From the sequence record SRR31156797_636: a stretch of DNA of 64,000 bases, one strand, 5' to 3'. The number at the start of each line of letters is the position of its first letter. The first letter of the stretch is position 1. The translations under genes and the position numbers were made by a program. The notes below the pieces were generated by a model. The model did no database searches and had not been told where the DNA came from. It saw nothing but the letters and a program-made list of their open reading frames with translations. Of this stretch, positions 1 to 63,022 are shown one piece after another.

Positions 1-360
1 ATGGACGAAGCAGAAAAAGCCTTTGAAATCGAAATCCGCATCGAAGATTTCATTGGCGTCGAGACCATCCAGGATCTTGCCGGCCGCATAGCGGAAATCA
101 AGGGTGTCGACATAAACGCTGAAATCGCGCCAGCGCCAACGAACGCGAACTACAACACTGTTCTTGAGCAGATGATTCAAATCATCATGGATTCCACAGG
201 CTATGAACGAGATGAAATCGAACCGGAGATGGACATTCGCCAGGATCTCAACATCCGGTCCAGTCGCTTGCCCATCATTATGGACGAAGCGGAAAAAATT
301 TTTAAAACCGAAATTCGCATCGAAGACTTCATCGGCGTCGAGACCATTCAGGATCTTGCC
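1..360 (+). repeat. Direct repeat encoding tandem ACP domains (copies at 1-81 and 280-360, offset 279 nt)
   Basis: atggacgaagcagaaaaagcc...gagaccatccaggatcttgcc recurs nearly identically from 280; the peptide MDEAEKxFxxEIRIEDFIGVETIQDLA occurs twice. Confidence 0.9.
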
Positions 361-2748
361 AACAAAATTGCAGAGCTTCAGGGGCGCTCCCCTGTCGCCG
401 CACGGTCAGTAGAAGACAGCAAGACCAAAACTCCTGTTGCTTCCACAGAAATACTAGATACCGTTCAGAACGAGTTACCCGTCTTGCGGTATGAATTCGC
501 CGAAACCGATGCCAACGCTCCTACAGGCACCCCGGCCTATGAGGTAGGCGGAGCCCCTGTCGTCATTGCAACCCTCGGTGGCTCCTACCGAATCGACGCA
601 GTTAAAAGTTGGGTCACAAAAACGGTTCAGGCTGATGTAGTCACCCTTGACCTGACCCGGAACACTAAGCTCGATGCTTTATCACAGTGCCAGGGGCTCA
701 TTCTACTCGTTGACGAAATAGAAGGCAGTGACAGCACACGCACCATACCAGCCCTGTTGCAGGTATTCCCCGCCATGAAAGACTTTGCCGGCAACAAAAC
801 GAAGAAATTTTGCATCACTATGGGCGAAGCCCTCAACGGAGCAACCCTGAGTGAAGTCGGCGAAGGCGTACTCGGCATCCTCATTGCCGCAGCCATGGAA
901 TACACCTCAACGGTCTTCCGCTATGCCGCTGTTTCGCAAGGGGTTGATATAAAGGATGTCCTTGATCGTTGCGTTTCCAGCGAAGAACGGACGGTCGAAC
1001 TCATTTTCAAGAATCGGGATATCATGACCCGAACGCCGCGCCCCGTTGCCTTCCGGACCGGCGAGTTGAAAACACAGCTCAAATCTGGCGATGTGATCGT
1101 CGTCACCGGCGGCGGCAAAGGCGTTACGGCAGCCGTGGCTGGAACTATGGCTGCCCTGGACGTGAAATTGGCATTGCTGGGTCGAAGCCCGGAAACTGCG
1201 CCAGACACAAAATCAACCCTCAACAGCATCAAGGGAATGGGATGTTCGGTGATGTACTGCTCCTGCGACGTCACAGACGCCCAAGCCGTTGGCAAGGCGA
1301 TCAAATCCGTCGCCAAGACATACGGTCGCGTGGACGCAGTCATACACGGAGCTGGACTCCTCAAAGACGGTTTCCTGCAACTCATGTCCATTGAAAACTT
1401 CGAACTTGTTCTCAAAGTCAAATTGCAGGGTCTCATGAATGTGGTCGAGGCCGCTTCCGGACATGGCCTTCGACTGGTATCCGCTTTTTCTTCCGTGGCG
1501 GCATGGCATGGCAATATCGGGCAATCGAACTATTGCGCAGGAAACAGGGCCATGGCGGCCTACCTGGAATCTCTTACAGATCGGGGCATTGCCGGAAAGA
1601 CCATCTGGCTGCCGCCTGTGGATGGTGTAGGTATGGCCAATGATCCAGAGGTGAAAAAACTTTTGGCCATGAAGAACATGGGGCAGGCGTATGTTCCCAT
1701 CGCCTCCCTGGCCAGACTCATCCGGCTTGAAATTGCTGACGGCCAGCCGGGATGGACCTTGCTTTCCCGCCCGGTCACCGCCCCCATTGGCGACAGATTC
1801 TTCCCCACCGGGCCCGAAAATGAACTTCTAGGCCGGGCCGTACACGGCCTGCCCATGATCGACGAAATCACGGAACTCAAGCTTGAGACACCCGAAATCA
1901 GCATAAAACGGTCTGTTTCCCACACCACAGACCCATGGCTACCTAACCACAAACCTTATCCAATACTGAAGTATCCGCTCTTCTCGGCAGTCATGGCCGT
2001 GGAAAGCTTGCTGGAAACAGCCAAGGCGCTCTACCCCGATTTCACACCGACCGGAGTAAAAGACGTCCATTTCCTGGACATGATCCCCTGTTCCGAAGAA
2101 GCAACCCGCGAACTGCGCGTAACTGCCAATGGGCGAGACACTTCAATTGGTGCCACACGTGTTGCCGCATCACTTTCCTGCCGTGACATGTCTCCCAAGG
2201 GACGCCAACTTGACCGGTGGAGCGACTGTTATACCGCTGAAATCATTATGGCAACCACCGCCGAACAAATGCTGACACCCCCGGTTTGGGACGGCGTTGA
2301 CTCCCTACCCCCCGTCACGCTTTCATCGTCCAAGATAGCTGACATCTATGCAAAGTACACGGCCCAGCTCGACCGGTATCAAGTGATCCAAAAAATCACC
2401 GGAGCGAATGAACGCGGTGCCACTGGCATTACCGTCTATGGCGATGAAAAAGATTTCACTTCCAAACGCGCTCCGTATCAATACTCGCCCTACCTGTTAG
2501 AGGCATTGATGCAACTGGCTCTATTCCAGCCTCTCGCGGCGGGCAGCGAGATAGCTCCGTTCCTGCCCGTAGGAATCGGTGAACTGCGCTTTGCCAGACG
2601 CTGCAATCCCGACGAGGCTGTAGCGCTCAAGGTCCGGTTGCGCGAAAACATCAAAGACGGCTCGGTTTGGGACGGCATGGCTTTGGACGAAAAAGGCAAT
2701 GTGCTCATGATAGTTGAAGGCTTGTCCATGAAGCGTATAACTAGCTAG
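1..2748 (+). CDS. Iterative type I PKS/FAS, PfaA/HglE-like, 5'-truncated (tandem ACP, KR, DH domains)
   Basis: Two ACP-like repeats (IIMDSTGYERDEIEPEMDIRQDLNIRSSR...VETIQDLA); KR motifs VTGGGKGVT, HGAGLLKDG, FSSVAAWHGNIGQSNYCAGN; DH-like DPWLPNH and LLEALMQ. The ORF begins mid-ACP at the window edge. Confidence 0.9.
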   Translation: MDEAEKAFEIEIRIEDFIGVETIQDLAGRIAEIKGVDINAEIAPAPTNANYNTVLEQMIQIIMDSTGYERDEIEPEMDIRQDLNIRSSRLPIIMDEAEKIFKTEIRIEDFIGVETIQDLANKIAELQGRSPVAARSVEDSKTKTPVASTEILDTVQNELPVLRYEFAETDANAPTGTPAYEVGGAPVVIATLGGSYRIDAVKSWVTKTVQADVVTLDLTRNTKLDALSQCQGLILLVDEIEGSDSTRTIPALLQVFPAMKDFAGNKTKKFCITMGEALNGATLSEVGEGVLGILIAAAMEYTSTVFRYAAVSQGVDIKDVLDRCVSSEERTVELIFKNRDIMTRTPRPVAFRTGELKTQLKSGDVIVVTGGGKGVTAAVAGTMAALDVKLALLGRSPETAPDTKSTLNSIKGMGCSVMYCSCDVTDAQAVGKAIKSVAKTYGRVDAVIHGAGLLKDGFLQLMSIENFELVLKVKLQGLMNVVEAASGHGLRLVSAFSSVAAWHGNIGQSNYCAGNRAMAAYLESLTDRGIAGKTIWLPPVDGVGMANDPEVKKLLAMKNMGQAYVPIASLARLIRLEIADGQPGWTLLSRPVTAPIGDRFFPTGPENELLGRAVHGLPMIDEITELKLETPEISIKRSVSHTTDPWLPNHKPYPILKYPLFSAVMAVESLLETAKALYPDFTPTGVKDVHFLDMIPCSEEATRELRVTANGRDTSIGATRVAASLSCRDMSPKGRQLDRWSDCYTAEIIMATTAEQMLTPPVWDGVDSLPPVTLSSSKIADIYAKYTAQLDRYQVIQKITGANERGATGITVYGDEKDFTSKRAPYQYSPYLLEALMQLALFQPLAAGSEIAPFLPVGIGELRFARRCNPDEAVALKVRLRENIKDGSVWDGMALDEKGNVLMIVEGLSMKRITS

Positions 2749-2759
2749 GCGTCATTTGC

Positions 2760-3350
2760 ATGATTCTCTTCTGCGATGGCATAGAAATCGCCGTTCGTCG
2801 AGCGCCTGTAGGAGATAACCGACGCACACTTGCTGAGATTACATGCACAGATCTGTCGTTTGACATGCATGAATTCTCTCTGGAAAAAGTGGGGTTGGGA
2901 GTTCCGAAACTCGTTGGGGAAAATCAGGCACCAGCCATATCGTTCACATCCTCCCGAGAAATCCGGTGGTGTGCCGTGGCGTGGTGCAAAGGGCTTGGTA
3001 TTGATGTCGCATGCCCGGAGGAATTCGAGCCACCATACCCTGTGTCACGTGTTTTCGATGCTGCTGAGATAAAACTCACTGAAGCCCATATTGATGATCA
3101 GTTGTCGCAACTGGCCCTACTGTGGAGTTTCAAGGAAGCGGCTGCCAAGGCCATGGGGACGGGTTTCAACGCTGTCGAACCCGGAGAGTTGACGGCAGCA
3201 GCTCTGCATGAGAAAGACGACAAGCTCAACGGAATCGTCACGACGCCCGGAGGAAAGCTCCCGGTTGTTGCGATCCGGGTGAGCGACTGCTGGCTAGCCA
3301 TTGCACGAAGACAAGTGAGTCGAGGATATACATGTCGAAATTTGAAATAA
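2760..3350 (+). CDS. 4'-phosphopantetheinyl transferase (ACPS/Sfp superfamily)
   Basis: Motifs LGIDVA and LWSFKEAAAKAMGTG; starts 11 nt after the PKS stop. Confidence 0.85.
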   Translation: MILFCDGIEIAVRRAPVGDNRRTLAEITCTDLSFDMHEFSLEKVGLGVPKLVGENQAPAISFTSSREIRWCAVAWCKGLGIDVACPEEFEPPYPVSRVFDAAEIKLTEAHIDDQLSQLALLWSFKEAAAKAMGTGFNAVEPGELTAAALHEKDDKLNGIVTTPGGKLPVVAIRVSDCWLAIARRQVSRGYTCRNLK

Positions 3351-4453
3351 TTCCCGTTCGTTCTTCCGGGGAGATGAAGCAATTCGTCGAACTGCCCTGG
3401 ACTATATACAAAGACTCGCCCAACTGGGTACCGCCGCTCAAGAAGAGCATGACGCACCTTTTGACGCCGGGCAAACACCCTTTCTGGGAATTTGCCAATC
3501 GTGAACTCTTTCTGCTCAAGCAAGGACGACAGGTTGTTGGCCGCATCGCAGCCATAGTCGATGGCAACTACAACAAGTATCACCATGAGAAGGCCGGTGT
3601 CTGGGGCTTCTTCGAATGCATCGACGATCAGGAAGCAGCCGACATGCTGTTCGACGCCGCCGAGTCATGGCTTCGCGAAGCGAGCATGGAGTACATGCAC
3701 GGACCTTTCAACCCCTCCACCAACTACGAGGTCGCCATGCTCATCGAAGGCGGCGAAGTGCCGCCGGTGCTCATGATGACCTACAATCACGACTACTACC
3801 CTTCTTTGGTGGAAGCCTCAGGCCAGACCAAGGAAAAGGACCTTTTCGCCTTCAAGTTCAAGCGGGGCCATCAGTTGCCCGAATGGGTAACCAAGATCTC
3901 CAACCGATTGGTAGACAAGGGCGAGGTCACCATCCGTCATCTGGACATGAAGAAACTGGATGAGGAAGTGATCCTCATGAACAAGCTATACCGGGCAGCC
4001 TGGGCCGACAACTGGGCCTTTGTCCCGGCAACGGATGCCGAAATCGCCATCCAGGCCAAGGAACTCAAGAACATCATCGAGCCACGTCTGGCCTTTTTTC
4101 TCTATTATGACGACGAACCCGTGGGCGTGGGCGTTATCCTGCCGGACGCCAACCCGCTCCTCAAGGAATTCAACGGCAAGCTCGGCGTCACCGCCCTGTA
4201 CAAGCTGCTCCGTCACAAATCCAAGATCGTCGGCACACGCTGCATCCTCTTCGGCGTCAAGCCCAAGTACCACCAAATAGGCGTGCCGCTCGTCGCGCTG
4301 GATTACATCCTGAAGATGAGTGAAGAATTCCCCCAATACAAGCATATTGAGATGAGCTGGACCCTGGAGGACAACGCAGGGATCAACGACCTGCTGGAAG
4401 ACTTCGGGGGCGACCTCTACAAAAAATACCGAATCTATCGAAAAGATTTTTAG
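3332..4453 (+). CDS. GNAT-fold N-acyltransferase, bacterial ceramide synthase (bCerS)-like
   Basis: 373 aa with family-typical segments FVELPWTIY..PNWVPPL, VVGRIAAI, WGFFECIDD, GPFNPSTN, WADNWAFVP, EMSWTLEDN, KKYRIY; overlaps the PPTase stop. Confidence 0.8.
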   Translation: MSKFEIIPVRSSGEMKQFVELPWTIYKDSPNWVPPLKKSMTHLLTPGKHPFWEFANRELFLLKQGRQVVGRIAAIVDGNYNKYHHEKAGVWGFFECIDDQEAADMLFDAAESWLREASMEYMHGPFNPSTNYEVAMLIEGGEVPPVLMMTYNHDYYPSLVEASGQTKEKDLFAFKFKRGHQLPEWVTKISNRLVDKGEVTIRHLDMKKLDEEVILMNKLYRAAWADNWAFVPATDAEIAIQAKELKNIIEPRLAFFLYYDDEPVGVGVILPDANPLLKEFNGKLGVTALYKLLRHKSKIVGTRCILFGVKPKYHQIGVPLVALDYILKMSEEFPQYKHIEMSWTLEDNAGINDLLEDFGGDLYKKYRIYRKDF

Positions 4454-4462
4454 GACGTCATC

Positions 4463-5452
4463 ATGCGCGCATTGGTCACGGGAGCAGCAGGCTTTGTAGG
4501 CAGCCATTTGGCAGAGGCTCTCGCCGCTGACGGCCATGACGTGACATGCCTCCTTCGTCCGGGCAGCAAGCCACGCTGGTTGTCCGGCACCTCCCTCCCC
4601 ATTGTCGATTGCGGCATGAATTCACCGGAAGCCATGGTCGAAGCGGTCGGCAGCAGCGATGTGATATTTCATGTGGCCGGTGTGACCAAGGCGAATACTC
4701 CGCAAGGCTATTTCGACGGCAACGTCGACATCACCCGCAATCTCGTGGACGCCGTCAAGACGCACAGTCAGCAGGTCAAGGCGATCATTGGGATATCCAG
4801 TCAGGCGGCAGCGGGTCCGCATCCCGGCCCCGACGGTCTGGACGAGTCGGCAACGCCCGCCCCTGTCTCCTATTACGGAAAGGCGAAGTTGCAATCGGAG
4901 AACGTGCTCATGGAGCTTGCCGACTCCGTTGCAGTGGGCATCGTCAGGCCACCCATGGTCTACGGACCGAGAGACTACGCGTTTCTCCCACTCTATTCCG
5001 GCGCCAAGCTCGGCCTCTTCCCTGTTCCCGGCAGCCGCAAGACACTCATGAGCATCATCCATGTCCACGATCTGGTCCGGGGCATCGTTTCTCTCGGCAA
5101 CGGTTTGCTGGACAAGAACGTCCCTTCGGGCAACGCCTATTTCCTTTCCGGCCAGACCGCGTCGTGGGCCGAGATCGGCACAGCCATAGGCGACGCTGTG
5201 GGGCGCAGGCAGCTCCTGTTCCCCATTCCCCTGTTCGCCATCGGAGCCGTGGCCATGGTCAACGGCGTGCTGGCCCGACTGGGCCTCCCCACCAACCACT
5301 TGTTGCCGGACAAATGGCGCGAAGCCAAACAGCCGGGATGGGTGTGCACTCACGCCAACGCCAGCGCGGATTTCGGATACTCGCCCCGGATCGGGCTTGA
5401 AGAGGGAATGCGCACCACTATCGAATGGTGCCGGGAAAACGGCCTGTTATAG
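4463..5452 (+). CDS. NAD(P)-dependent extended SDR (epimerase/dehydratase family), candidate ceramide reductase CerR
   Basis: VTGAAGFVGS Rossmann motif, HVAG, YGKAK (YxxxK), RPPMVYGPRD. The CerR role is inferred from position after the bCerS-like gene. Confidence 0.8.
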   Translation: MRALVTGAAGFVGSHLAEALAADGHDVTCLLRPGSKPRWLSGTSLPIVDCGMNSPEAMVEAVGSSDVIFHVAGVTKANTPQGYFDGNVDITRNLVDAVKTHSQQVKAIIGISSQAAAGPHPGPDGLDESATPAPVSYYGKAKLQSENVLMELADSVAVGIVRPPMVYGPRDYAFLPLYSGAKLGLFPVPGSRKTLMSIIHVHDLVRGIVSLGNGLLDKNVPSGNAYFLSGQTASWAEIGTAIGDAVGRRQLLFPIPLFAIGAVAMVNGVLARLGLPTNHLLPDKWREAKQPGWVCTHANASADFGYSPRIGLEEGMRTTIEWCRENGLL

Positions 5453-5466
5453 GGCGTCCGCCCCTG

Positions 5467-7347
5467 TTACGCAACGTGCCCGTGCGCTTCCAGCCAGAGT
5501 TGCAGGACAAGGAAGGTCCACAATTCCTCGCGCCTGTCCACGACATTGTTCTTGTGCTCACCTATCAATGAAGCAATCGCCTCAGGACGGAACAGCCCCT
5601 GCCGTTTCAGGAAACCGGCATCCGCGAATCGCGCCAGTTGCGGTTTCAAACTACTGCCGAGCCAGCCGGCTACCGGCATGAGAAAGCCTCGCTTGTTCCG
5701 CTTTCGGATACTCGGAGGCATGAATCCGGCGAGAGCCTGTTTCATGAGGTGCTTCCGCTTCCCGCCGGGGATCTTGAAACGACCCGGCAGACTGAACACA
5801 TACTCCACCAGAGCCGTATCCAGAAACGGAGACCGGACCTCAAGCCCGTGCATCATAGAACAACGATCGACTTTCGTCAGAATGTAATCCAGCAGATATG
5901 TCTTGGCGTACTGGTTGAACACCGCGTCCAAAGGCGCACCGTCCTCGAATTCCTGCCAACTCTCGATCGGATGACCGAAAAGCAGTTCGGGCGAATCGCT
6001 CGGAGGTGAAGACCATAGCGTCTCCTGAGCTTCGGGGGAAAAGGCCATAAGCATGCGGGGAACCCTGTACGGCGCGGGAGCCTTGACCGCCTCGGCAAAC
6101 CGGCCCACGGCGTGGCCCGGACTGATGTAGTGGGAGGACACGGGCAGCATGCGGCGAAGCCCTTCAAGAACCATGCGCATGGGCATGCCGAGGGCGGCGC
6201 ATCGTTGCGCCCATATAAAGGCCGAAAAATGTTCGTACCCGCCGAACAGCTCGTCGGCCCCGTCGCCGGACAAGGCCACGGTGACATGCTGCTTGACGAA
6301 TCGGGAAAGGAAATAGGTCGGGATGATCGACGGATCGGCCAACGGTTCGTCAAACCTGCCGACAACTTCGCCCACCAGTTCCGCGCACATGGTGCCGGTG
6401 AGATTTTCATTGTAATGATCCGTCCCGGCGAATCGGGCGGCTTGAACCGCGTATTCCGACTCGTCGTACGCCTTTTCCTCGAATCCGATGGAAAAGGTTT
6501 TGACCTGAGAACTGCTGAGTCGGGACATGAGGCTGACGACGACCGTTGAGTCAAGACCGCCGCTGAGAAAGGCCCCAAGGGAAACATCGCTTATCAGGCG
6601 ACGCCCGACAGCGTCTTCGAGCAGACTCCTGATGTGCCCAGCCGCCTCGTCGCCCCCGACCGTACGGGTCGGATGCGGCAGCGACCAGTAACGGGAAACC
6701 GAGACTTCCCCATCCTTGAAGCGCAAACAATGCCCCGGCTGAAGTTTCCGCGCTTCCGTATAGATGGAACTCGGCGTCGGGACGTATTTGCAGGTCAGGA
6801 ACTGGGCCATGGCCTGCATGTCCAGATTGAACGATGTGTCAGGCACCGCAGTAAGGGATGAAAGTTCCGAAGCGAACGCGAACACCGAGTTCTGACAAGT
6901 GTAATAGAACGGCTTTTTGCCCATCCTGTCCCGCGCCGCAAACAGGGACTGCTCTTTGGTGTCCCATATGGCAAAGGCGAACATGCCCTCGAAATGCGAC
7001 AGGCACGCCTCGCCATACTCCATATAGGCCTGCAACAGAACTTCTGTATCAGACGTGGTACTGAAACTGTGGCCCTTGGCTTCCAAGGCGACTCGGACTT
7101 CCCGGAAATTGTATATTTCGCCGTTGAAAACGATGACGAACCGTCCGCAAGCACTCTTCATGGGCTGTCCGCCCGTACTGAGGTCTATGACTTCCAGGCG
7201 ACGGTGGGACAATGCGGCGGGTTGGCCGACCCAGACGCCGTCAGAATCCGGCCCGCGGTGCCGTACGCCATCGGCCATGCGTATGGCGCACTGCCGGAGA
7301 ACGTCCGACGTCAGCCGAGGGTGGACAACTCCGGCGATGCCGCACAT
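5467..7347 (-). CDS. asnB: AsnB-like glutamine-hydrolysing amidotransferase (probably glycan/glycolipid amidation)
   Basis: MCGIAG start, HRGPD, HRRLEVIDL, FNGEIYN, LSGGLDS, LSGDGADELFGGY, EVRSPFLD. Confidence 0.92.
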   Translation of the reverse strand: MCGIAGVVHPRLTSDVLRQCAIRMADGVRHRGPDSDGVWVGQPAALSHRRLEVIDLSTGGQPMKSACGRFVIVFNGEIYNFREVRVALEAKGHSFSTTSDTEVLLQAYMEYGEACLSHFEGMFAFAIWDTKEQSLFAARDRMGKKPFYYTCQNSVFAFASELSSLTAVPDTSFNLDMQAMAQFLTCKYVPTPSSIYTEARKLQPGHCLRFKDGEVSVSRYWSLPHPTRTVGGDEAAGHIRSLLEDAVGRRLISDVSLGAFLSGGLDSTVVVSLMSRLSSSQVKTFSIGFEEKAYDESEYAVQAARFAGTDHYNENLTGTMCAELVGEVVGRFDEPLADPSIIPTYFLSRFVKQHVTVALSGDGADELFGGYEHFSAFIWAQRCAALGMPMRMVLEGLRRMLPVSSHYISPGHAVGRFAEAVKAPAPYRVPRMLMAFSPEAQETLWSSPPSDSPELLFGHPIESWQEFEDGAPLDAVFNQYAKTYLLDYILTKVDRCSMMHGLEVRSPFLDTALVEYVFSLPGRFKIPGGKRKHLMKQALAGFMPPSIRKRNKRGFLMPVAGWLGSSLKPQLARFADAGFLKRQGLFRPEAIASLIGEHKNNVVDRREELWTFLVLQLWLEAHGHVA

Positions 7348-8573
7348 CAGCCAATCCCCCGCGCATGTGCTGAGAACAGTTCGATCAGGGTGGTACAGTT
7401 CTTCTCCTGATCAAACAGGTTCAAAACGTGATCCCTGCCATTGCTCGCAAATGCTTGAGCCTCTTCAGGGTTCCGGACCAGCCGGACAATGGCATCGGCC
7501 AGGACTTCGGGACGCCTTTGCGGAACAAGATACCCTGTCCTGTCGTTGATCACGACTTCGCTGATCCCGGCCACGTCCGTGGCAATGACAGGAAGACCGT
7601 GGGCATAGGCTTCCATGATGACATTGGGGATGCCGTCCCTGTCTCCATTGGTGTCCACCACGCTGGGCATAACCAACGCGTCACTGGCCAGCATGAGACA
7701 AGACAATGCATCGTGACTGAGGAATCCTTTGAAATCCACGGAGTTCGTCAGTTCGAGATTGGCGGCTTGCCGCATCAGCTTACCGCGCAACATGCCGTCA
7801 CCGGCAAATGTTAGAGAAAAATCGACACCCTGTTTTTTAAGCAGAGAACAGGCATCCAGCAGATTATCGAAACCCTTTGTCCTGACAAAACGTCCAGCGG
7901 CCAGAAGTTTGAGTTTTCCTCCATCCGACCAGTGCCGTTCCCCTTCAGGCCCCAATGAAAGCGCGTTATAGACCAGTATAATTTTGTCTTCATGGCCCTT
8001 GGCGAATGATTGCAGATACGGGACATTGGCTCCATGATTGACCCGAACGAAGGAGGCGTCCCCGATCTTGTCACTCAATGAGCCTTCAGGCGGGTAGATG
8101 TCTCCAGCCCGTCCGGCAAAGGAAAAAGGGATACCTGAAAGCTTCGAAGCGACCCATGCGGCCGTGGCCGGTCCTCCGGCCCAGGGGGCATGGATATGCT
8201 GAATCCCCTCTTCCTGAAAACGCCTAGCCAGATGCAGGCCGCAACAAAAAGCCCAGAGGTTCTCGCCCAGTCCCTCCAAGGAACGCCATTTGTTAAATGG
8301 CCCTGCCTTGAGCATTGAAAACGTCTGAGTAAAATCAAACGCAAGGCGCTTAAACAATGCGCCAAGCAGCATCAGCGTCTTGATGGAACCCAGATGCTCG
8401 GATGGAGTAAACTCCTGCATTTCAGCTGAAAAATTCTTGGTCAGACCAGCATACAGGGTGAACACTTTGATAGGCAATCCCATATCACGCATCTTTTTGA
8501 CTTCGCGAAAAATGAAGGTTTCAGACGGCTTTGGAAACCATAGCGAAATATATGCGGTACGAGGGAAATTCAT
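7347..8573 (-). CDS. Glycosyltransferase family 4 (WcaL-like)
   Basis: SETFIFRE, HIHAPW, GRFVRTKG, DRDGIPNVIMEAYAHGLPVIATDVAGISE. Confidence 0.9.
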   Translation of the reverse strand: MNFPRTAYISLWFPKPSETFIFREVKKMRDMGLPIKVFTLYAGLTKNFSAEMQEFTPSEHLGSIKTLMLLGALFKRLAFDFTQTFSMLKAGPFNKWRSLEGLGENLWAFCCGLHLARRFQEEGIQHIHAPWAGGPATAAWVASKLSGIPFSFAGRAGDIYPPEGSLSDKIGDASFVRVNHGANVPYLQSFAKGHEDKIILVYNALSLGPEGERHWSDGGKLKLLAAGRFVRTKGFDNLLDACSLLKKQGVDFSLTFAGDGMLRGKLMRQAANLELTNSVDFKGFLSHDALSCLMLASDALVMPSVVDTNGDRDGIPNVIMEAYAHGLPVIATDVAGISEVVINDRTGYLVPQRRPEVLADAIVRLVRNPEEAQAFASNGRDHVLNLFDQEKNCTTLIELFSAHARGIG

Positions 8574-9787
8574 CGGTCAGAAGTCTCTGTGGGGCGGATA
8601 ATCTCTAAGACATCTCCGCCAAGTTTAGTACGGTAACCGATATTGTGCCAAAATATGACATTGGTCGTCCAAGTACGTATATACCCGACAGCAGCATTTA
8701 GGTGAAGGATTGCATAGGCTGCCAATCGTTTAGGCAGCGAAACGTTATTCGGAATGACTCTGGTGTAGAGGCATCCAACACCGACGAGTCCGGCAAGATA
8801 AACCATCGACACCAGCCCGGAAGCTTGCGTGTCGACTCCGGGGATTAAGCCGGCAAGCCCGACAACGACGTATGCGAGCATCAGAAAAAAAATCAGAGGA
8901 ACGACAGTGGCGGCGATCCATGTGAGAGGCATTCCGAATTTAAGGTACTGTAACTGGCGGAAGAACCATTGGTCCCACCCTTTGAGGCTCTGGCCGGAAA
9001 GAGGGGTAACGAGACAGGCCTCGGCCACCGGAAACGACCGGACGCCTTCGCCCTGAAGGTACGGTCCCATGGTGAAATCATCGACCACGGTCCGCTCCCA
9101 CAACTGGGGGATATTGTACCCGAAAAAAGTGTCACGGCTAATGGCGGTCGCCCCACCCCACGGCTGGGTGATGGGCCGGATAGCTTGAAGCATGTGTATG
9201 GATTGCACGGACAACATTTGGCAGATGGTGCCGAGATTCTCGTCTCCAGGCTGAACAAAACGATAGCCAGACGTCATCAGGGCCTCGCCCAGCGCAATCG
9301 GGGCCGTCAGACGAGCCAAGAAATCCGATTTTGCCACATGGGTGCTGTCGCAAAAGACGAGGATAGACTCGTCTACAGCGGCGGAAGCAACTCCAGCCAA
9401 AAGGTTGTGATTTTTTTGACAGCACCGCGTTGCCAATCTTGCCACTACATGCTGTGCATGGTCGTATTCCCTGCACAGGGATTGAATCAATCGGGCGGCC
9501 GGCTCGTCCGGCAGTGCAGTCACCAAAATAACGCGGTAGTTATCGTAATCCTGCTCAAGCAAAGACCGAAGGCCCGACTCGACTCCGGGAGAAACATTGC
9601 CCACCGGCACAATCATGGCGATACTGGCTGCGTTGACAGGACGCTCGAACGGCGTGTTACGCCAAACGGCCCTGCGCATAAACGGCATGGTAATGAACAG
9701 GAGAAACAATGCTCCCAATACATGTAATGCCATAGCCATTTTCATAAAAATGCCCCAAAAGGCGAAGCCCTGTGTCAGTTCAACCAT
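8570..9787 (-). CDS. GT2/GT21-like membrane glycosyltransferase, ceramide glucosyltransferase/HpnI-like (alternative start 9745)
   Basis: N-terminal TM, IVPV, SLLEQDY, QKNHNL, VFCDST, WGGATAI, VVDDF, WFFRQ, C-terminal TMs and IFWHNIGY (W-x-G/N-x-x-Y-like tail). Confidence 0.75.
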   Translation of the reverse strand: MVELTQGFAFWGIFMKMAMALHVLGALFLLFITMPFMRRAVWRNTPFERPVNAASIAMIVPVGNVSPGVESGLRSLLEQDYDNYRVILVTALPDEPAARLIQSLCREYDHAQHVVARLATRCCQKNHNLLAGVASAAVDESILVFCDSTHVAKSDFLARLTAPIALGEALMTSGYRFVQPGDENLGTICQMLSVQSIHMLQAIRPITQPWGGATAISRDTFFGYNIPQLWERTVVDDFTMGPYLQGEGVRSFPVAEACLVTPLSGQSLKGWDQWFFRQLQYLKFGMPLTWIAATVVPLIFFLMLAYVVVGLAGLIPGVDTQASGLVSMVYLAGLVGVGCLYTRVIPNNVSLPKRLAAYAILHLNAAVGYIRTWTTNVIFWHNIGYRTKLGGDVLEIIRPTETSDR

Positions 9788-56781: not shown

Positions 56782-58488
56782 TTATTCCGGACTTCCTGAA
56801 ATATTTGCGGCCATCTTTTTGACGTCAAGGACTTTGACTCCCGGACCGATAATTACTCCCGGCAAATCCGCATCCAGCACCGCGAAACCATCTCCATGAG
56901 CTGCCAGCGCCCGAATCTCATCGTCGAAAGGTGCAAAGAATGCACCTCCGGCAATAAACTCATCCTCGAAAAACTGTTCATCGACAACAAAATAATCAAC
57001 GCTGTTTCTTTGACAAAAACTCACAATTTCAAGCAAATCTGAAGAGTAATAGGCTTTAAATAGATCTTCCAGTCGGGGCTGAATGACTTTCCAGTAACCG
57101 ACGCACCAAGGATGCGCCAATTCATAAGAAACAAAAACATTCCGCTGTCCGAACATGAGCAAATTGTCCATCTGGTAGGGGTGTCCGGCAACAAGAACAT
57201 CCTTGTCAGTGGTAGAGCGAACAAACTCGCAAACCGGACGATCATGGGTATAATCATACAGTGCGACCCCTTGGAGGCGCACACATCCGATGACGAATCC
57301 CGTGACAAGAACGCAAACCATAAACGTCTCACGCTTCAGGCGGAAATATCGGCATACCCCGACGAGTGCGCACCCCAGAAGACAACAATATAAAATATTC
57401 ATCGTGTATTCCAGATAACGGGACGGGATGAACAGCTGCAACAAAATCAATCTGGCCAAGATGTAAAGAGCAAAGGAAGCACTACCGATACTCAGCCACA
57501 CCACTACGCTGGATTTGACACTCTTCCACTGAAAACCCCGAATACCAAAAAAGAGAAGACCAACGCACACCGCCACTCCAATTCCACCCACAACAGGCCC
57601 CCCGTCACGGAATGGAGCAATGTACTCAAAAGGCCGGACAAATAATTCCCAAAAGAGTGAAGGCACCGGCAAAATTCCAAAACGACCAGCTTCATAGAAT
57701 TCAGGCCTGCCAGTCATGTCAGCCATACTTGCCATAGGGCCAAAACCCGCCAGATGCATTTGAAAACGCCAAGCCAGAAGCCCGCAACAGGCAAGGGCTG
57801 AGATAACGTAATCCGACCATTTGACGAGGAATGGCGGCGGCGATGTCAACTCGAAACGCCAAGCAATCATGGCTAGACCGATGCTGCCACCACACAGAAT
57901 AAAAATATATGGGATAAAAAAGGCCTGAAGCAATAGAGCCCCGGCCATCAGCCAACGCACACGGCGGACCCAGGCCAAAATGAACAGGAGCATTAGTGGC
58001 CCCGCGAATGCCCTGGACAATCCCCCGGATATGGAATGCAAAAATATGGGCATCGCCCAGTACACGGCCACCATGGACAAGCCTAAAGCCTCATCGGCCA
58101 TGGACTTGCCGACCCAATAGGCAAACATCGCCATCAGAACGAACAGAACCCCTGTCAGCAACTTGGAGAACAACAAGGGAGACACGACCATGGCAGCTAC
58201 AAAGTACAGCGACTGCACCCCCCAGGGAACATAGCGCATGGCATATTCATTCAAAATGCTCTCTGGATACAGGGCCGGATCAAGCCACCGTTGCATCCAG
58301 TAAAGCTGCTGGCGCGTATCATCATTGATGATATATGAATTCAGGAATCCGGTATGATGTGATATGAGAAAAAGAAGAGTCGAAAAAATTAAAACAAAAA
58401 AGGGTGCATATCTGCACACTGCCCCCCAAAGGGTAGCGGTGAATTGGCCTGTCCCAGACACAACACCCGTTCCTCTATGGAGCGTCAT
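56782..58488 (-). CDS. Polytopic membrane protein, putative GT-C-like transferase
   Basis: First-loop DD motif (INDDTRQQLYWMQ), about 11 TM, PSRY, C-terminal soluble domain (VDYFVVD). Confidence 0.6.
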   Translation of the reverse strand: MTLHRGTGVVSGTGQFTATLWGAVCRYAPFFVLIFSTLLFLISHHTGFLNSYIINDDTRQQLYWMQRWLDPALYPESILNEYAMRYVPWGVQSLYFVAAMVVSPLLFSKLLTGVLFVLMAMFAYWVGKSMADEALGLSMVAVYWAMPIFLHSISGGLSRAFAGPLMLLFILAWVRRVRWLMAGALLLQAFFIPYIFILCGGSIGLAMIAWRFELTSPPPFLVKWSDYVISALACCGLLAWRFQMHLAGFGPMASMADMTGRPEFYEAGRFGILPVPSLFWELFVRPFEYIAPFRDGGPVVGGIGVAVCVGLLFFGIRGFQWKSVKSSVVVWLSIGSASFALYILARLILLQLFIPSRYLEYTMNILYCCLLGCALVGVCRYFRLKRETFMVCVLVTGFVIGCVRLQGVALYDYTHDRPVCEFVRSTTDKDVLVAGHPYQMDNLLMFGQRNVFVSYELAHPWCVGYWKVIQPRLEDLFKAYYSSDLLEIVSFCQRNSVDYFVVDEQFFEDEFIAGGAFFAPFDDEIRALAAHGDGFAVLDADLPGVIIGPGVKVLDVKKMAANISGSPE

Positions 58489-58489
58489 A

Positions 58490-59437
58490 CTATTTTACAT
58501 CAGCCTTTTCATTTTCCGTAAACATGATCCGGACCTTATAGCCTTCCTTCAGGAAATTGTCAGGATTGTCGATTTCCAATTCAGCAGCATAATATGACGG
58601 CGCATCGATATTGGTGTCAACCGGCAACCACGACATAGACACCAGCTTGGCCTTCATGACCTTGTCAGGATTGAATTCCACTATGACCTCAGCTGTATCA
58701 CCCGGCTTCAAACGATACATGTCAGCTTCATATACCTGAGTCCGAATGATCATCGGGTCCATAACACCGATAGCAAAAACGGATTCATCAACGATTGCTC
58801 CCAACTCCACATTGGTGTTTTCCCATATAATATAGCCCTCGATGGGAGAACGAACATACATCTGGGACGTATCCAACCTACGGTCACCTTTTTGCCCAAG
58901 CATTTCAGCAATCAACAACCTATCATCAGCAGCCCGTTTTTGATCTTGAGTCAACTCTTTCTTTGCCTGCTCGACCTGAAACGAGATGAGGGATATCTGA
59001 TCCCTCAAGGAAGCAACACCCTTATCCGTCGCCAGTCCCTGCTGACTCAGAGTCTTGTTTGACTCAAGCTGTTTATTGAGAGTCTTGAGTCTAGCTTTCC
59101 ACTTCTTGATCTCCAGCTCTTGGCGAGTAAATTCAAGCTTCTTGTCAACCCTGGCTTCAAGGCCGAGAGCGTCCTTGCGCTTGAGACGTACTTTCATCAG
59201 CACGTCGTCCTTTTTCACCAATTGGCCAACGCTCACCTTCTTCTCAATCACCTCGCCGGAATAGGGCAGCTTTACGGGATGTGTCATCGAGCAATAGACC
59301 TTCCCCTGAAAAATCGTCTCAACCGCATTCGCAGCAGAACTAATACCATGCTTCTGCTGACCATACGCAAACGAGCAGGCCAGCAGCAGAGTGGTCATTA
59401 AAACTATCGCAGCAAGTCTAATTTTCCAGGTCATCAT
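58490..59437 (-). CDS. Periplasmic adaptor / membrane fusion protein (HlyD/MacA/DevB-like)
   Basis: Signal peptide, PYSGEV...VSVGQLVKKDDVL, coiled coil, VRSPIEG, VYEAD..LKPG, IDNPD..LKEG. Start placed at MMTWK. Confidence 0.88.
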   Translation of the reverse strand: MMTWKIRLAAIVLMTTLLLACSFAYGQQKHGISSAANAVETIFQGKVYCSMTHPVKLPYSGEVIEKKVSVGQLVKKDDVLMKVRLKRKDALGLEARVDKKLEFTRQELEIKKWKARLKTLNKQLESNKTLSQQGLATDKGVASLRDQISLISFQVEQAKKELTQDQKRAADDRLLIAEMLGQKGDRRLDTSQMYVRSPIEGYIIWENTNVELGAIVDESVFAIGVMDPMIIRTQVYEADMYRLKPGDTAEVIVEFNPDKVMKAKLVSMSWLPVDTNIDAPSYYAAELEIDNPDNFLKEGYKVRIMFTENEKADVK

Positions 59438-60872
59438 CTTTAATCTCAATGTACTGTTCCAACAACCTACCCGTCAGGGCATAAGTCTCCAATTTACGTA
59501 CTATATAACTTTGTTGTTTGGACAACAAAGTTATTTCCTTGAGTACAACGGCAACTTTTGCCGACACGAAATCCCTGAATGTCGCTTCTCCAGCGTCAAA
59601 CAAAATCTCCTTCTTTCTCAGCATCATCTCCTGCAACTCCAGATCGACCTTAGCAAGTTCAAGCTCGCGTTGCATGCTGCGCAATTCCGTCAACCCTTTG
59701 TACCAGTTATCTTCTTTGGTCAAGTTTGAGAGCTGACGCCTAAATCCTTCATTCTTTTTGACAAGTTCGGCCCTATCGGTATTTCGGCCAAGTTCGCCCC
59801 AATGCAAAACCGGAACTGTAATGCCAAGGGTCAAATAAAAATCTTCCTTGCCGTCTGTCGATGAGCTGATCGGATCAGGAGTTCTTACGGAAACGGAAAA
59901 CTTAGGCACATAATTAGCCCAAGCTGCATAAACACCATAATTCGATAATTCTTTACGGATGACGTTCATTTTCGAAAAAAGTGCGCTGCTCTTCATCTCC
60001 TGATAAGTAATCTTGTGTGGAGCATACACCGCATCAACCACGCTGGCAAAGTCGCTTTTTTTCAGAACTATTTTTTGTTCGACCGGAATACCGATCATCC
60101 GCTTGACCCGCATCTCCATATCGGAACGCTGCTCAATGAAAGTCCGCCTGTTGCAGGCAACTTTTTGCAGTTCCTGTTCAGCCAAACGGACTTCGAGTGG
60201 CACCACTGGAGCGTTGGGGTACATTTTCTGGATATATGAGAGAGTTTCATTTCCGAATGCCTCAAGTTTCCGCTGCTCATCCATTATTTTATCAAAAAAC
60301 TCAGCATGAATATAAACCTTGATGACATTGGCAATTAGCTCGTTGGCAGCCTGAAGTTTTTGATATTTTGCAAGCTTGGTCACGAGCAAACTGGCATCAT
60401 GACTCAAATAAGACCCAATGGGGTCCCATGTGCCACTACTAAAGCTCACCGACAACTTGTTACGCGACTTGTCGTCCTTCGTTGTCAGATTCACGTTGTT
60501 GCTGACGTAAAGATTCAGCTTGGGAAACATCCTCCACCACTTATTTTCTTCATCAATCTTCTTGATGTCGATTTCGACCTCGGCCATCTTCATGTACGGA
60601 GATTTTTCCAGAGTCAGCTGGATGCATTCTTCAAGAGTCAGGGGATCTGTCACAAAAGATTCGGTCGAAGTAGGAGTAGCACCATTCCCGGTAGAAAGTG
60701 TCGCACTAGCGGTTTCCCAATCCACAGGGGACGGAGTTTCACTCGTGGCCCCACAGCCAAAAGCAACGAGCATCATAAGCAGCATGCACCCCAAAGTCAG
60801 CTTGCAGCCGACCAAGGACGCGAAACGCTTTTTTTTGATATTATATTTTTCTACCCTGCTTTTCATAAGCAT
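59418..60872 (-). CDS. TolC-family outer membrane efflux protein, probable lipoprotein
   Basis: Lipobox-like LVAFGC, LTLEECIQLTLEKSP, two helical repeats with PKL/PKF, FDAGEATFRD; between ABC ATPase and adaptor. Confidence 0.82.
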   Translation of the reverse strand: MLMKSRVEKYNIKKKRFASLVGCKLTLGCMLLMMLVAFGCGATSETPSPVDWETASATLSTGNGATPTSTESFVTDPLTLEECIQLTLEKSPYMKMAEVEIDIKKIDEENKWWRMFPKLNLYVSNNVNLTTKDDKSRNKLSVSFSSGTWDPIGSYLSHDASLLVTKLAKYQKLQAANELIANVIKVYIHAEFFDKIMDEQRKLEAFGNETLSYIQKMYPNAPVVPLEVRLAEQELQKVACNRRTFIEQRSDMEMRVKRMIGIPVEQKIVLKKSDFASVVDAVYAPHKITYQEMKSSALFSKMNVIRKELSNYGVYAAWANYVPKFSVSVRTPDPISSSTDGKEDFYLTLGITVPVLHWGELGRNTDRAELVKKNEGFRRQLSNLTKEDNWYKGLTELRSMQRELELAKVDLELQEMMLRKKEILFDAGEATFRDFVSAKVAVVLKEITLLSKQQSYIVRKLETYALTGRLLEQYIEIKDDDLEN

Positions 60873-61081: not shown

Positions 61082-61765
61082 TTACTGTTCCTTCAGTATT
61101 CCATCTTCAAGGAGAAATCTTCGGGTACAACGCTTGGCAACTTCCGTATCATGAGTAACCAAAACCATGGCCTTCCCTTTGATAGAAACAATTTTCTCAA
61201 AATATTTCATTATCTTCTCACCCGTCTTCCGATCAAGCTGTCCTGTAGGCTCGTCCCCCAACAAAACTTGAGGACGATTCACTAGGGCACGGGCAATGGC
61301 GACACGCTGCTGTTCACCGCCGGACAGGCGGTTCGTAGCGTGATGAATCCTGTGAGACAGATTTACCTCCTTCAGTGATTCTTCAATGATTCCAGCACGT
61401 TTAGCTCTCGATATCTTTCCGTAAATAAGCGGATACTCGAGATTTTCATAGACCGTAGAATTTTCAAACAGGTTGCACGACTGAAGCACAAAACCAAGAT
61501 TATCCCGTCTGAATCCGGCCCTCTCCTTAACATTCAGACCGAGCACATCACGACCAAGTATCTTGTAGCTGCCAGAGGTAGCTGGCTGCAACATCCCCAT
61601 AATATACAACAAGGTGGATTTTCCACAACCTGAAGGCCCCATGATGGAAACCATCTCGCCAGGATAAATATTGACATCCACACCGGTCAACACAGGCACC
61701 TTGCCCGCCGGAGTGACGTACTCCTTCCGAAGATTCTTAACTGAAATGATAGGATCAGGTTTCAT
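61082..61765 (-). CDS. ABC transporter ATP-binding protein (MacB/LolD/DevA-like)
   Basis: GPSGCGKSTLL, LSGGEQQRVAIARAL, LLGDEPTG.LD, VTHD. Confidence 0.96.
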   Translation of the reverse strand: MKPDPIISVKNLRKEYVTPAGKVPVLTGVDVNIYPGEMVSIMGPSGCGKSTLLYIMGMLQPATSGSYKILGRDVLGLNVKERAGFRRDNLGFVLQSCNLFENSTVYENLEYPLIYGKISRAKRAGIIEESLKEVNLSHRIHHATNRLSGGEQQRVAIARALVNRPQVLLGDEPTGQLDRKTGEKIMKYFEKIVSIKGKAMVLVTHDTEVAKRCTRRFLLEDGILKEQ

Positions 61766-61769
61766 ATCG

Positions 61770-62960
61770 CTACTCGAACCGTATTGCGGTCACGGCATCC
61801 AATCTCGATGCCCTCAATGCCGGATAATATCCTGTAACAAGTCCAAGCATTCCGGAAAAGACAATACTCATACCGGCATAGGTAATGAACACATCTCGCG
61901 ACGGGCTGCTCCCGAGGAAATGACTGGCGAACTCAACAACCACATATCCCAATAGCACCCCGAATATGGCAGCACTTATACTCAGACAAAAAGCCTCACA
62001 AAGAAACTGACTCTTGATGTCCCGCCCCTCGGCTCCCATCGCTTTTTTCAGTCCGATCTCACGAGTCCTGGCAATGACGGAACTCATCATACCATTCCAG
62101 ATACCAAAACCGCCAAGCGTCAGAGTTGCGCCGATAGACAAAAAAATGAACAGCTCCACCCACCACACGATGAGCACCAACCGATGCAACTGCTCCCAAG
62201 AGACATGACTGACCAGATAATCTGCGGACTGGTGAGCCTTGACCGTGGCCACCAACGCGTCGGCCACAGGTTTAACATCGTCCCATGTCTTGCAACGCAG
62301 GTATATCCTGTCCGAACGGTATTCCTTGCCGCTCCGGTCAATGGCCGCCGTCAACGGAACAAAGGCATAGGAATTGCGCTGTCCGATCTGAAGCCCCCCG
62401 ACAACGCCAAGAACCTTATAAAGGTCCTTACCGATACGGATGTAGTTGCCCAAGGCGCTTTCTTGACCAAACAACGACTCTGCGAGCTCTTCACCAATCA
62501 CGCAAACCAGTGACCGTTCATCGACAAAGGATTTGCCAAACAGGAATCCGGCAACCGGCTCCAGGCTGTTGGCGGACCAGTAATCGGCATCAACTCCCTG
62601 GACCGGAACGATATTTTTTTCCCCGTTAACAAGCATCGGAACCCAGTTGATGGTCTCGGTTGCGGCGCTAACAACATCAACGCCCGGCAATGCCCGCAAG
62701 GCATCCTGAGTTTCGTCGGTAAAGAATTTGTCCCTGGCTCCGGGGTGCTTTTCCTCTTCAAATCCCAACTTGATAAGGGTCGCACCTCCAAGAAGATCAA
62801 GGTCATGGTTGAGCTTCTTCTTGACCTCATCACCCATGGCCATCACTGCAAGCAAACTCGCCGTCCCCAAGGCAATAGCCAACATCACGCCGAAACTGCG
62901 GCGGCGCTGTCGGAACACCTGACGAACGCTGATGTGTATTAGATCTCGTGCTGTGATCAT
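61770..62960 (-). CDS. ABC transporter permease (MacB/FtsX family)
   Basis: RRSFGVMLAIALG, large periplasmic domain, RTREIGLKKAMGA, QFLCEA, YYPALRASRLD..AIRFE. Start placed at MITARD. Confidence 0.92.
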   Translation of the reverse strand: MITARDLIHISVRQVFRQRRRSFGVMLAIALGTASLLAVMAMGDEVKKKLNHDLDLLGGATLIKLGFEEEKHPGARDKFFTDETQDALRALPGVDVVSAATETINWVPMLVNGEKNIVPVQGVDADYWSANSLEPVAGFLFGKSFVDERSLVCVIGEELAESLFGQESALGNYIRIGKDLYKVLGVVGGLQIGQRNSYAFVPLTAAIDRSGKEYRSDRIYLRCKTWDDVKPVADALVATVKAHQSADYLVSHVSWEQLHRLVLIVWWVELFIFLSIGATLTLGGFGIWNGMMSSVIARTREIGLKKAMGAEGRDIKSQFLCEAFCLSISAAIFGVLLGYVVVEFASHFLGSSPSRDVFITYAGMSIVFSGMLGLVTGYYPALRASRLDAVTAIRFE

Positions 62961-63022
62961 ATTCTGAAGACATCCCCGTTCAAGGGGATCTAAAGGCATC
63001 CTTGAGGTATGCCATCACCATT

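Follow-up and report, generated by a model that had tools for sequence, protein, structure and literature searches.

The first 5452 nucleotides (nt) of a 64,000-nt stretch of DNA from sequence record SRR31156797_636 (the window, meaning that whole stretch) carry four genes on the + strand that may form the downstream half of an operon in which a private synthase supplies the acyl chain of a ceramide-type amino-lipid, an interpretation that we regard as about evenly balanced between right and wrong. In order, the genes encode the end of a large iterative type I synthase resembling fatty acid synthases (FAS) and polyketide synthases (PKS), a 4'-phosphopantetheinyl transferase (PPTase), a tandem-GNAT N-acyltransferase of the YghO/bCerS family, and a CerR-type reductase of the extended short-chain dehydrogenase/reductase (SDR) class. 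Bacterial sphingolipid synthesis has been elucidated recently, in aerobes that use a small stand-alone acyl carrier protein (ACP). In the present locus, a PKS-type enzyme would replace that stand-alone acyl donor, as a sequence-only reading of the window had proposed. The four gene identities given in that reading (the tail of a PKS-type synthase, a PPTase, a bCerS-family N-acyltransferase and a CerR-family reductase) are borne out, together with the operon geometry, by domain matches, homology and spacing.

The arrangement of the four genes goes beyond chance because it recurs as synteny across loci; the geometry of the operon does not carry this point. Two samples of loci are available. The first, anchored on the acyltransferase and mapped for neighbouring genes by tblastn, comprises 80 loci kept from 593 relatives found. 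The second, anchored on the ACP motif of the synthase, comprises 80 loci kept from 273 relatives, of which 49 have at least 1.5 kb before and at least 2.5 kb after the synthase. Of the 80 acyltransferase-anchored loci, 46 have a synthase no further than 3 kb away, as do 35 of the 46 loci in which at least 3 kb is present on both sides and identity is at least 45%. Among 11 loci with a more distant acyltransferase, none has the synthase and nine have a gene for an alpha-oxoamine synthase (AOS) resembling serine palmitoyltransferase (Spt). Seen from the synthase, an acyltransferase is found within 3.5 kb in 41 of the 49 loci, a PPTase homologue follows in 38, an SDR is present in 20, and an Spt-like gene is seen in the flanks of 11, never in a locus that lacks the acyltransferase (0/49). 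The acyltransferase is thus the most constant partner of the synthase. These loci span Thermodesulfobacteriota, Acidobacteriota, Planctomycetota, Verrucomicrobiota, Aminicenantes, Nitrospirota and Riflebacteria.

Within the window, the junctions of the four open reading frames (ORFs) are an 11-nt gap (2749-2759), a 19-nt overlap (3332-3350) and a 9-nt gap (4454-4462), in exact agreement with the spacings and the shared + strand reported earlier. ORF starts were taken as the first ATG, GTG or TTG past the upstream in-frame stop; for the 373-aa acyltransferase and the 329-aa SDR, alignments with relatives begin at residue 1-5. Shine-Dalgarno-like sequences precede both of these genes, namely GAGGA 7-11 nt 5' of the ATG at 3332 and AGGA 8-11 nt 5' of the ATG at 4463. 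A simple scan of positions 1-7500, which amounts to weak evidence, gave three promoter-like and six terminator-like sites, all of them on the - strand and none on the + strand. The following gene (5467..7347) is convergent on the operon, with its stop 14 nt beyond that of the SDR. Judged by this geometry, the four genes would be co-transcribed.

The synthase enters the window with its 3' end only. Specifically, the ORF at 1..2748 (+), open at its 5' end, encodes 915 aa with the Pfam domains PP-binding (aa 57-121 of the window part), KR (366-540) and PS-DH (771-914), which correspond to the end of ACP2, the whole of ACP3 (window 133-396), a KR and a PKS-type DH. The full-length synthase was read in a genome that is 99% identical over 1-5452 (G001), which serves as a proxy and is not the same record. 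There, the ORF begins 5.1 kb further upstream and totals 2616 aa, and all three of the KS, AT and ER domains that the sequence-only reading had proposed to look for upstream are present. The complete domain order is a 320-aa head, an NMO/FabK-like ER (322-648; 177.8 bits), a KS (675-1082), a FabD-like AT of the malonyl type (1223-1509), three tandem ACPs, a KR and a DH, with everything from the head through ACP1-2 encoded upstream of the window, apart from the end of ACP2. The head (first 320 aa; L004 13727-14686, in G001) has no Pfam match and no detectable similarity to, or internal repeat with, the ER that follows it. The ACPs carry the motif D-L-x-I-R-S-S-R-L-P-x-I-M, invariant across nine aligned sequences from different lineages, in which an unusual I-R-S-S-R-L segment stands in place of the usual acidic G-x-D-S-L serine site.

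The identity of the synthase as a PfaA-type polyunsaturated fatty acid (PUFA) synthase was considered and rejected, as the TIGR02813 model scores 343.4 bits for the N-terminal part and 112.4 bits for the window part against a cut-off of 1010.1. Moreover, no CLF or FabA-type DH domain match was found in the synthase, whose DH is of the PKS type. The enzyme is therefore a pfa-like iterative type I synthase and not a PUFA synthase. Given the presence of KR, DH and ER, a saturated chain is the simplest expectation, and nothing points to the hydroxylated or unsaturated product that had been suggested. Pfam searches of both halves of the synthase detected no thioesterase or other release domain. The PPTase encoded next (2760..3350, +; 196 aa; Pfam ACPS, 36.5 bits against a cut-off of 25) presumably activates the synthase ACPs. 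Upstream of the synthase and on the same strand, G001 carries a radical SAM/SPASM gene, two glycosyltransferase genes and a gene for a 501-aa protein without family assignment. In other lineages, the radical SAM protein has orthologues (53-61%) close to the acyltransferase or to the Spt-like gene. In synthase-less loci of the Desulfomonile type and of Desulfobacteraceae (L057 8409-12851; L007 5402-7006), B12-binding radical SAM proteins flank the acyltransferase, one of them with a DUF4070 domain.

The third gene (3332..4453, +) encodes the 373-aa tandem-GNAT N-acyltransferase (P0001), assigned to a synthase-linked clade of the YghO/bCerS family by homology, predicted fold and tree. P0001 has no Pfam match even at E 10, no NCBIfam match and no match in the PDB from a single-sequence search, and its profile gives non-significant GNAT matches only (best E 0.054) when compared with the PDB. 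The AlphaFold model (pLDDT 84.2, pTM 0.84) adopts a GNAT-type fold, and its best Foldseek matches are tandem-GNAT proteins, led by 2wpw (E 5e-14) and followed by 5kf1, 7q3a, MshD and Eis. P0001 has 2445 relatives at an E value of at most 0.001, the closest (91%) from Pseudodesulfovibrio methanolicus, and it is the only acyltransferase of this family in G001. For the acyltransferase, the SDR and the AOS alike, reference clusters were annotated records found by tblastn in a plasmid collection. In one of these, from Sphingomonas parapaucimobilis, an N-acetyltransferase aligns with P0001 end to end (30% identity over 380 columns, E 7e-57) and stands in a cluster with an NAD(P)H-binding protein, an ACP, a class I/II aminotransferase, an ATP-binding protein, LptF, LptG and a desaturase. 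E. coli YghO is 33% identical over 97% coverage, and its neighbours (L098, NZ_MG591698.1, 2328-10107) encode a fatty acyl-AMP ligase, an epimerase/dehydratase-family protein, an ACP, a class I/II aminotransferase, LptG and LptF; this E. coli strain thus holds a complete Caulobacter-like sphingolipid gene set around yghO. A Roseomonas record places the acyltransferase homologue among LptF/G-family permeases, a diacylglycerol-kinase-family protein, a CDP-alcohol phosphatidyltransferase and an NTP transferase.

Natural fusions of AOS and acyltransferase also exist (P0130, 804 aa; P0131, 832 aa). P0131 matches the window AOS at 42% identity over its residues 37-415, and the window acyltransferase at 37% over residues 453-820. 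The search for longer fused forms spanned 654-2000 aa, a range that a synthase-acyltransferase fusion would exceed. Tandem duplications of the acyltransferase occur as well (P0122-P0129, 768-799 aa).

A careful tree of 87 sequences refines the assignment. P0001 falls inside a clade of 73 rows with support of 100/99, made up of 47 synthase-linked and 26 unlinked rows, and it does not group with the canonical Spt-adjacent members. The label bCerS given to this gene earlier is thus apt at the level of the family, with its full-length homology of 30-33%, and calls for qualification at the level of the clade. On the evidence of the tree, P0001 is best described as a member of a paralogous subfamily and not as a plain bCerS. 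The mean net charge of the acyltransferases is -0.2 for synthase-linked members (n=47) and +5.1 for those outside the clade (n=14), a difference that is confounded by relatedness and does not count as evidence.

The fourth gene (4463..5452, +) encodes a 329-aa extended SDR (Pfam Epimerase, 105 bits) and is a candidate 3-keto reductase of the CerR type. It is 30% identical, end to end, to the NAD(P)H-binding protein of the Sphingomonas Spt cluster (E 2e-37), its Rossmann motif begins at residue 5 as in that homologue, and it follows the acyltransferase by 9 nt, so that the name CerR proves justified as a family-level match. Of the 80 acyltransferase-anchored loci, 29 have an SDR homologue at most 5 kb from the acyltransferase. 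Two other identities for this SDR were rejected on score: OleD reaches 85.4 bits against a cut-off of 580, and HpnA 102.2 bits against 367.65.

A ceramide pathway also calls for an enzyme that makes the long-chain base, and here the earlier interpretation holds in part: acyltransferase and reductase are adjacent, whereas the Spt-like gene lies outside the operon, at the other end of the window. This gene (63023..64000, -) is cut by the window end and encodes an AOS of 401 aa in G001 (Pfam Aminotran_1_2). Its best NCBIfam match is the serine palmitoyltransferase model of CFB type (SerpalmtaseCFB), with 401.8 bits, which falls short of the curated cut-off of 640; bioF (337.6 bits, cut-off 426) and Kbl (327 bits, cut-off 460) both rank below the Spt model. 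The AOS is 32% identical to the aminotransferase of the Sphingomonas cluster (E 3e-68) and is the sole BioF/Kbl/Spt-type gene found in G001.

The two ends of the window are two arms of one system, the distal one inverted, since both are contiguous in a relative (G036, represented by loci L091 and L067). In that genome, synthase, PPTase, acyltransferase (45% identity), SDR (44%), GT2 glycosyltransferase (40%) and AOS (59%) follow one another and continue without a break into MacB (55%), ABC (56%), outer-membrane efflux protein (OEP), HlyD and a homologue of a 568-aa protein. The AOS orthologue stands there 2.7 kb past the SDR, with a single GT2 gene between the arms. Genomic linkage of the Spt-like gene to bCerS- and CerR-type genes is seen both in this relative and in a survey of 151 genomes of the family, in which AOS orthologues were defined by at least 51% identity. 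Specifically, 46 of the 151 genomes have the acyltransferase, 18 at 43% identity or above and 28 at 28-33%, and 32 have an AOS orthologue, including 27 of the 28 low-identity genomes, where it usually lies 5-6 kb from the acyltransferase. Among the 18 high-identity genomes, the three with an AOS orthologue (G001, G036 and G137) are the three with a large synthase adjoining the acyltransferase. In Geobacter-type loci (L015, L025), SDR, AOS, acyltransferase, synthase and PPTase stand in one row. Two further proteins are encoded in such Geobacter-type loci (L015 9043-9936 and 11119-11952): a phosphatase of the PAP2 family, placed between Spt-like gene and acyltransferase, and a protein of about 280 aa and of no family, placed between acyltransferase and synthase and recurrent in several loci.

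Several further genes of the window belong, or may belong, to the same system. Next to the AOS, a MacB-type ABC exporter (61082..62999, -; ATPase 61082-61765, permease 61770-62999; Pfam) is 55-56% identical to the genes right after the Spt-like gene in L091/L067. An HlyD-type adaptor (58490-59449) and an outer-membrane efflux protein (59418-60872) follow (58490..60872, -; Pfam), with homologues in the same order in L067 and L092. The last gene of the distal arm (56782..58488, -) encodes the conserved 568-aa protein, which has no Pfam match and is 43% identical to the products of the same-place genes in L092 and L067. Nearer to the operon, a GT2 glycosyltransferase (8570..9787, -) is 40% identical to its counterpart that separates SDR from AOS in G036 and 33-34% identical to genes in L092 and L007 that pass the Pfam model GT21 (ceramide glucosyltransferase-type); the window GT2 itself has weak matches to Glyco_tranf_2_3 and HpnI only. 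The convergent gene at 5467..7347 (-) encodes an AsnB-type glutamine amidotransferase (Pfam, NCBIfam) whose membership of the system is uncertain; AsnB homologues recur beside the cassette in L050 (48%) and beside an AOS paralogue in G139. The sequence between the arms (5467-56700, about 51 kb) is rich in polysaccharide genes, with four Polysacc_synt/Wzx-type flippases, two Wzy_C proteins, two Bac_transf initiating transferases, three AsnB-like amidotransferases, many glycosyltransferase genes and methyltransferases.

The best-supported interpretation is a model in which the iterative synthase assembles malonyl units into a chain, probably a saturated one, that would remain on the synthase ACPs activated by the neighbouring PPTase. 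The proposed hand-over of this chain to the acyltransferase takes its cue from the lack of a release domain in the synthase: the tandem-GNAT enzyme would lift the chain off the ACP and use it to N-acylate a 3-keto long-chain base, which the single Spt-like AOS of the genome (63023 onward) would provide. Subsequently, the CerR-type SDR would reduce the 3-keto group, in the order given by the Caulobacter model, in which the 3-keto base is acylated and then reduced (PMC11087976). Finally, the lipid may be glycosylated by the neighbouring GT2 and exported through the MacB/HlyD/OEP system in the distal arm. The product would thus be a ceramide-type lipid whose N-acyl chain passes directly from the synthase ACPs to the acyltransferase, and we give this about as much credence as its negation. 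The chemical steps, the hand-over, the acceptor and the chain length are all predictions drawn from gene content.

The first competing explanation leaves the gene set intact and changes the recipient of the chain. The synthase would feed the Spt-like enzyme, which would condense the ACP-bound chain with serine or alanine into an unusual long-chain base, in the manner of SgaA and SgaB of Pseudomonas or of Caulobacter with its dedicated ACP, and the acyltransferase would use an ordinary acyl-CoA or acyl-ACP. Such chemistry has precedents, as sphinganines derived from a monomodular PKS and an AOS have been published (PMC12134224) and the Spt of Rhodobacteria works with a dedicated ACP (PMC9386255). 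Likewise, an AOS could equally off-load a synthase without release domain, and one cluster holds AOS, synthase and acyltransferase together in G036 and in the Geobacter-type loci. Yet the constant neighbour of the synthase is the acyltransferase and not the AOS (41 versus 11 of 49 loci), the AOS almost never directly adjoins the synthase, and no locus has the AOS without the acyltransferase. In addition, it is the N-acyl chains that are very long in the environmental lipids still in want of an enzyme, and their bases are ordinary (PMC11334938). We therefore consider this explanation unlikely, if worth keeping in sight.

A second alternative abandons ceramides altogether. Here, synthase, PPTase and acyltransferase would make a non-sphingoid N-acyl lipid, with an amine such as an amino acid or an amino sugar as acceptor and perhaps tied to the polysaccharide genes; the SDR would act on that product, and the distal Spt-like gene would be unrelated, for instance a BioF. 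Several observations count against a ceramide product and lend this view its substance. Within the available flanks, the AOS is seen in only 11 of the 49 synthase-anchored loci and not seen in the other 38, and in the window it lies 58 kb from the operon in opposite orientation. An AOS orthologue is absent from 15 of the 18 high-identity acyltransferase genomes, three of which were inspected and have the acyltransferase-SDR pair only (G069, G117, G042), while in two others (G139, and G048 by position) the gene for an AT-KR protein is accompanied by another AOS paralogue; a scan of the G139 locus found efflux (exporter) genes and an AsnB homologue there as well. The AOS scores below every NCBIfam cut-off and is the only gene of its type in G001, so that a role in biotin synthesis is possible. 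In the tree, all 11 rows that have an AOS as sole cassette neighbour lie outside the clade of P0001, which sets that clade apart from the AOS-adjacent one. Two loci (L013 and L085) each carry one AOS-adjacent and one synthase-adjacent copy of the acyltransferase, and the synthase-adjacent copy may thus act outside the canonical ceramide synthase step. Two enzymes that acylate amino sugars, a glucosamine N-acetyltransferase and mycothiol synthase, are among the best structural matches of P0001, and the operon sits at the edge of the polysaccharide island, with glycosyltransferase genes and the radical SAM gene upstream in G001.

These points are met by others that tie the AOS to the acyltransferase. 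AOS-acyltransferase fusion proteins occur, both arms are contiguous in G036 with an AOS orthologue of 59% identity, and all three genomes of the family with a large synthase have an AOS orthologue. The radical SAM and GT2 orthologues, in turn, accompany AOS clusters in relatives without the synthase (L092, L007). Finally, flanks of 5-7 kb cannot reveal a distant AOS, and in this window the AOS is distant. A non-sphingoid product accordingly appears quite unlikely to us. As for a synthase that acts alone to make a free fatty acid, a hydrocarbon precursor or bulk membrane acyl chains, with GNAT and SDR as mere neighbours, pfa-like synthases with a PPTase are indeed widespread, mostly of unknown product and in some cases feeding olefin synthesis (PMC3098273), and the SDR has a weak similarity to OleD (85 bits), but the linkage to the acyltransferase across phyla (41/49 and 46/80 loci), the lack of any release domain found in the synthase, OleD and HpnA scores far under their cut-offs of 580 and 368, and the absence of ole genes from those seen in the window make this very improbable.

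The small-genome Desulfovibrionaceae represented by G139 show a gene arrangement of their own. In the locus concerned (L099, G139:C18, 2907-13003), a 1253-aa AT-KR protein without KS lies beside an efflux protein, an HlyD adaptor, a divergent AOS paralogue and an AsnB homologue, and the acyltransferase-SDR pair is located elsewhere. In the genus of G001, one of four sampled genomes has the acyltransferase, which marks the cassette as accessory and patchy and fits horizontal transfer.

A ceramide product made with a private synthase would set the cassette apart from known systems in different ways. In described bacterial ceramide loci, Spt is paired with a small ACP and a synthetase (PMC9386255), in keeping with the earlier statement that known loci draw on a stand-alone ACP or acyl-CoA, which PMC11087976 also fits. 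Compared through the Sphingomonas and E. coli records, the Spt/bCerS/CerR pathway of Caulobacter, Sphingomonas and some E. coli shares with the present system its three core enzymes, which have full-length homologues here at 30-33% identity; here, too, the acyltransferase adjoins the reductase and an exporter accompanies the Spt-like gene. In contrast to that pathway, a 2616-aa three-ACP synthase with its own PPTase replaces the stand-alone ACP and synthetase, the exporter is of the MacB/HlyD/OEP type instead of LptF/LptG paralogues, the acyltransferase belongs to a separate clade, and the Spt-like gene is 58 kb off. Caulobacter CerR has been reported to be periplasmic (PMC11087976).

SgaAB of Pseudomonas fluorescens MYb115, likened here by its description, is also a type I PKS dedicated to sphingolipids, with an AOS partner and an occurrence in many genomes (PMC12134224). 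It differs in that SgaA (PKS) and SgaB (AOS) form a two-gene unit that makes the long-chain base, mainly in Burkholderia and Pseudomonas, and no bCerS-type partner is described in the available part of that paper (PMC12134224); here, an N-acyltransferase is the conserved partner, and a FabK-like ER and tandem ACPs form part of the synthase. The 'secondary lipid' synthases of the Pfa type, which come with a PfaE-type PPTase (Shulse and Allen 2011, PMC3098273), resemble the present enzyme in being large and iterative, with tandem ACPs, a PPTase that follows and an unknown product, and they are patchy in anaerobic Deltaproteobacteria, Acidobacteria and Planctomycetes. A GNAT partner is not mentioned for them in what is available of that text (PMC3098273). 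Unlike them, the present synthase has no detected CLF or FabA-type DH, and its ER is fused at the front.

Direct passage of a chain between enzymes has been seen elsewhere: Azotobacter ArsA/ArsD lacks a release domain, and its ACP-bound product is passed directly to the next enzyme. There, the receiver is a type III PKS, whereas here it would be a tandem-GNAT N-acyltransferase. ArsA/ArsD is a type I fatty acid synthase that makes the alkyl part of phenolic lipids (PMC3098273).

Judged from the loci compared, the cassette is widespread and the pairing of synthase and acyltransferase is conserved across phyla, and it is undescribed in the literature searched: no paper tying a bCerS-type enzyme to a PKS and no description of the cassette were found, and nothing on Desulfovibrio sphingolipids was among the matches listed. 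Metalipidomics has shown that the Black Sea holds 1-deoxyceramide-type lipids with ordinary C18-22 bases and C32-39 N-acyl chains 'not reported in any living organism', which have been linked with Desulfobacterota and/or Bacteroidota by correlation only (PMC11334938). It is conceivable, though we would be cautious in expecting it, that the synthase and the acyltransferase clade constitute a dedicated machine for N-acyl chains of C30 and above, loaded from ACP onto long-chain bases, that the cassette, which is common in Desulfobacterota and other anaerobes, is the source of the C32-C39 N-acyl (1-deoxy)ceramides of euxinic waters, and that synthase and acyltransferase represent a new, tandem-GNAT release of a type I synthase product. 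If true, this would add a new chain-release logic for type I synthases.

The findings would also make for a finer reading of 'bCerS homologues' in metagenomes, as the synthase-linked clade is distinct from the Spt-adjacent one. The cassette offers a concrete and clonable candidate for the C32-39 N-acyl ceramides that is present in a sequenced Pseudodesulfovibrio-like genome, and an environmental lipid puzzle thereby becomes open to knock-out or heterologous expression. The operon arrangement of this sulfate-reducing bacterium could explain the unusually long-chained ceramides of oxygen-free waters.

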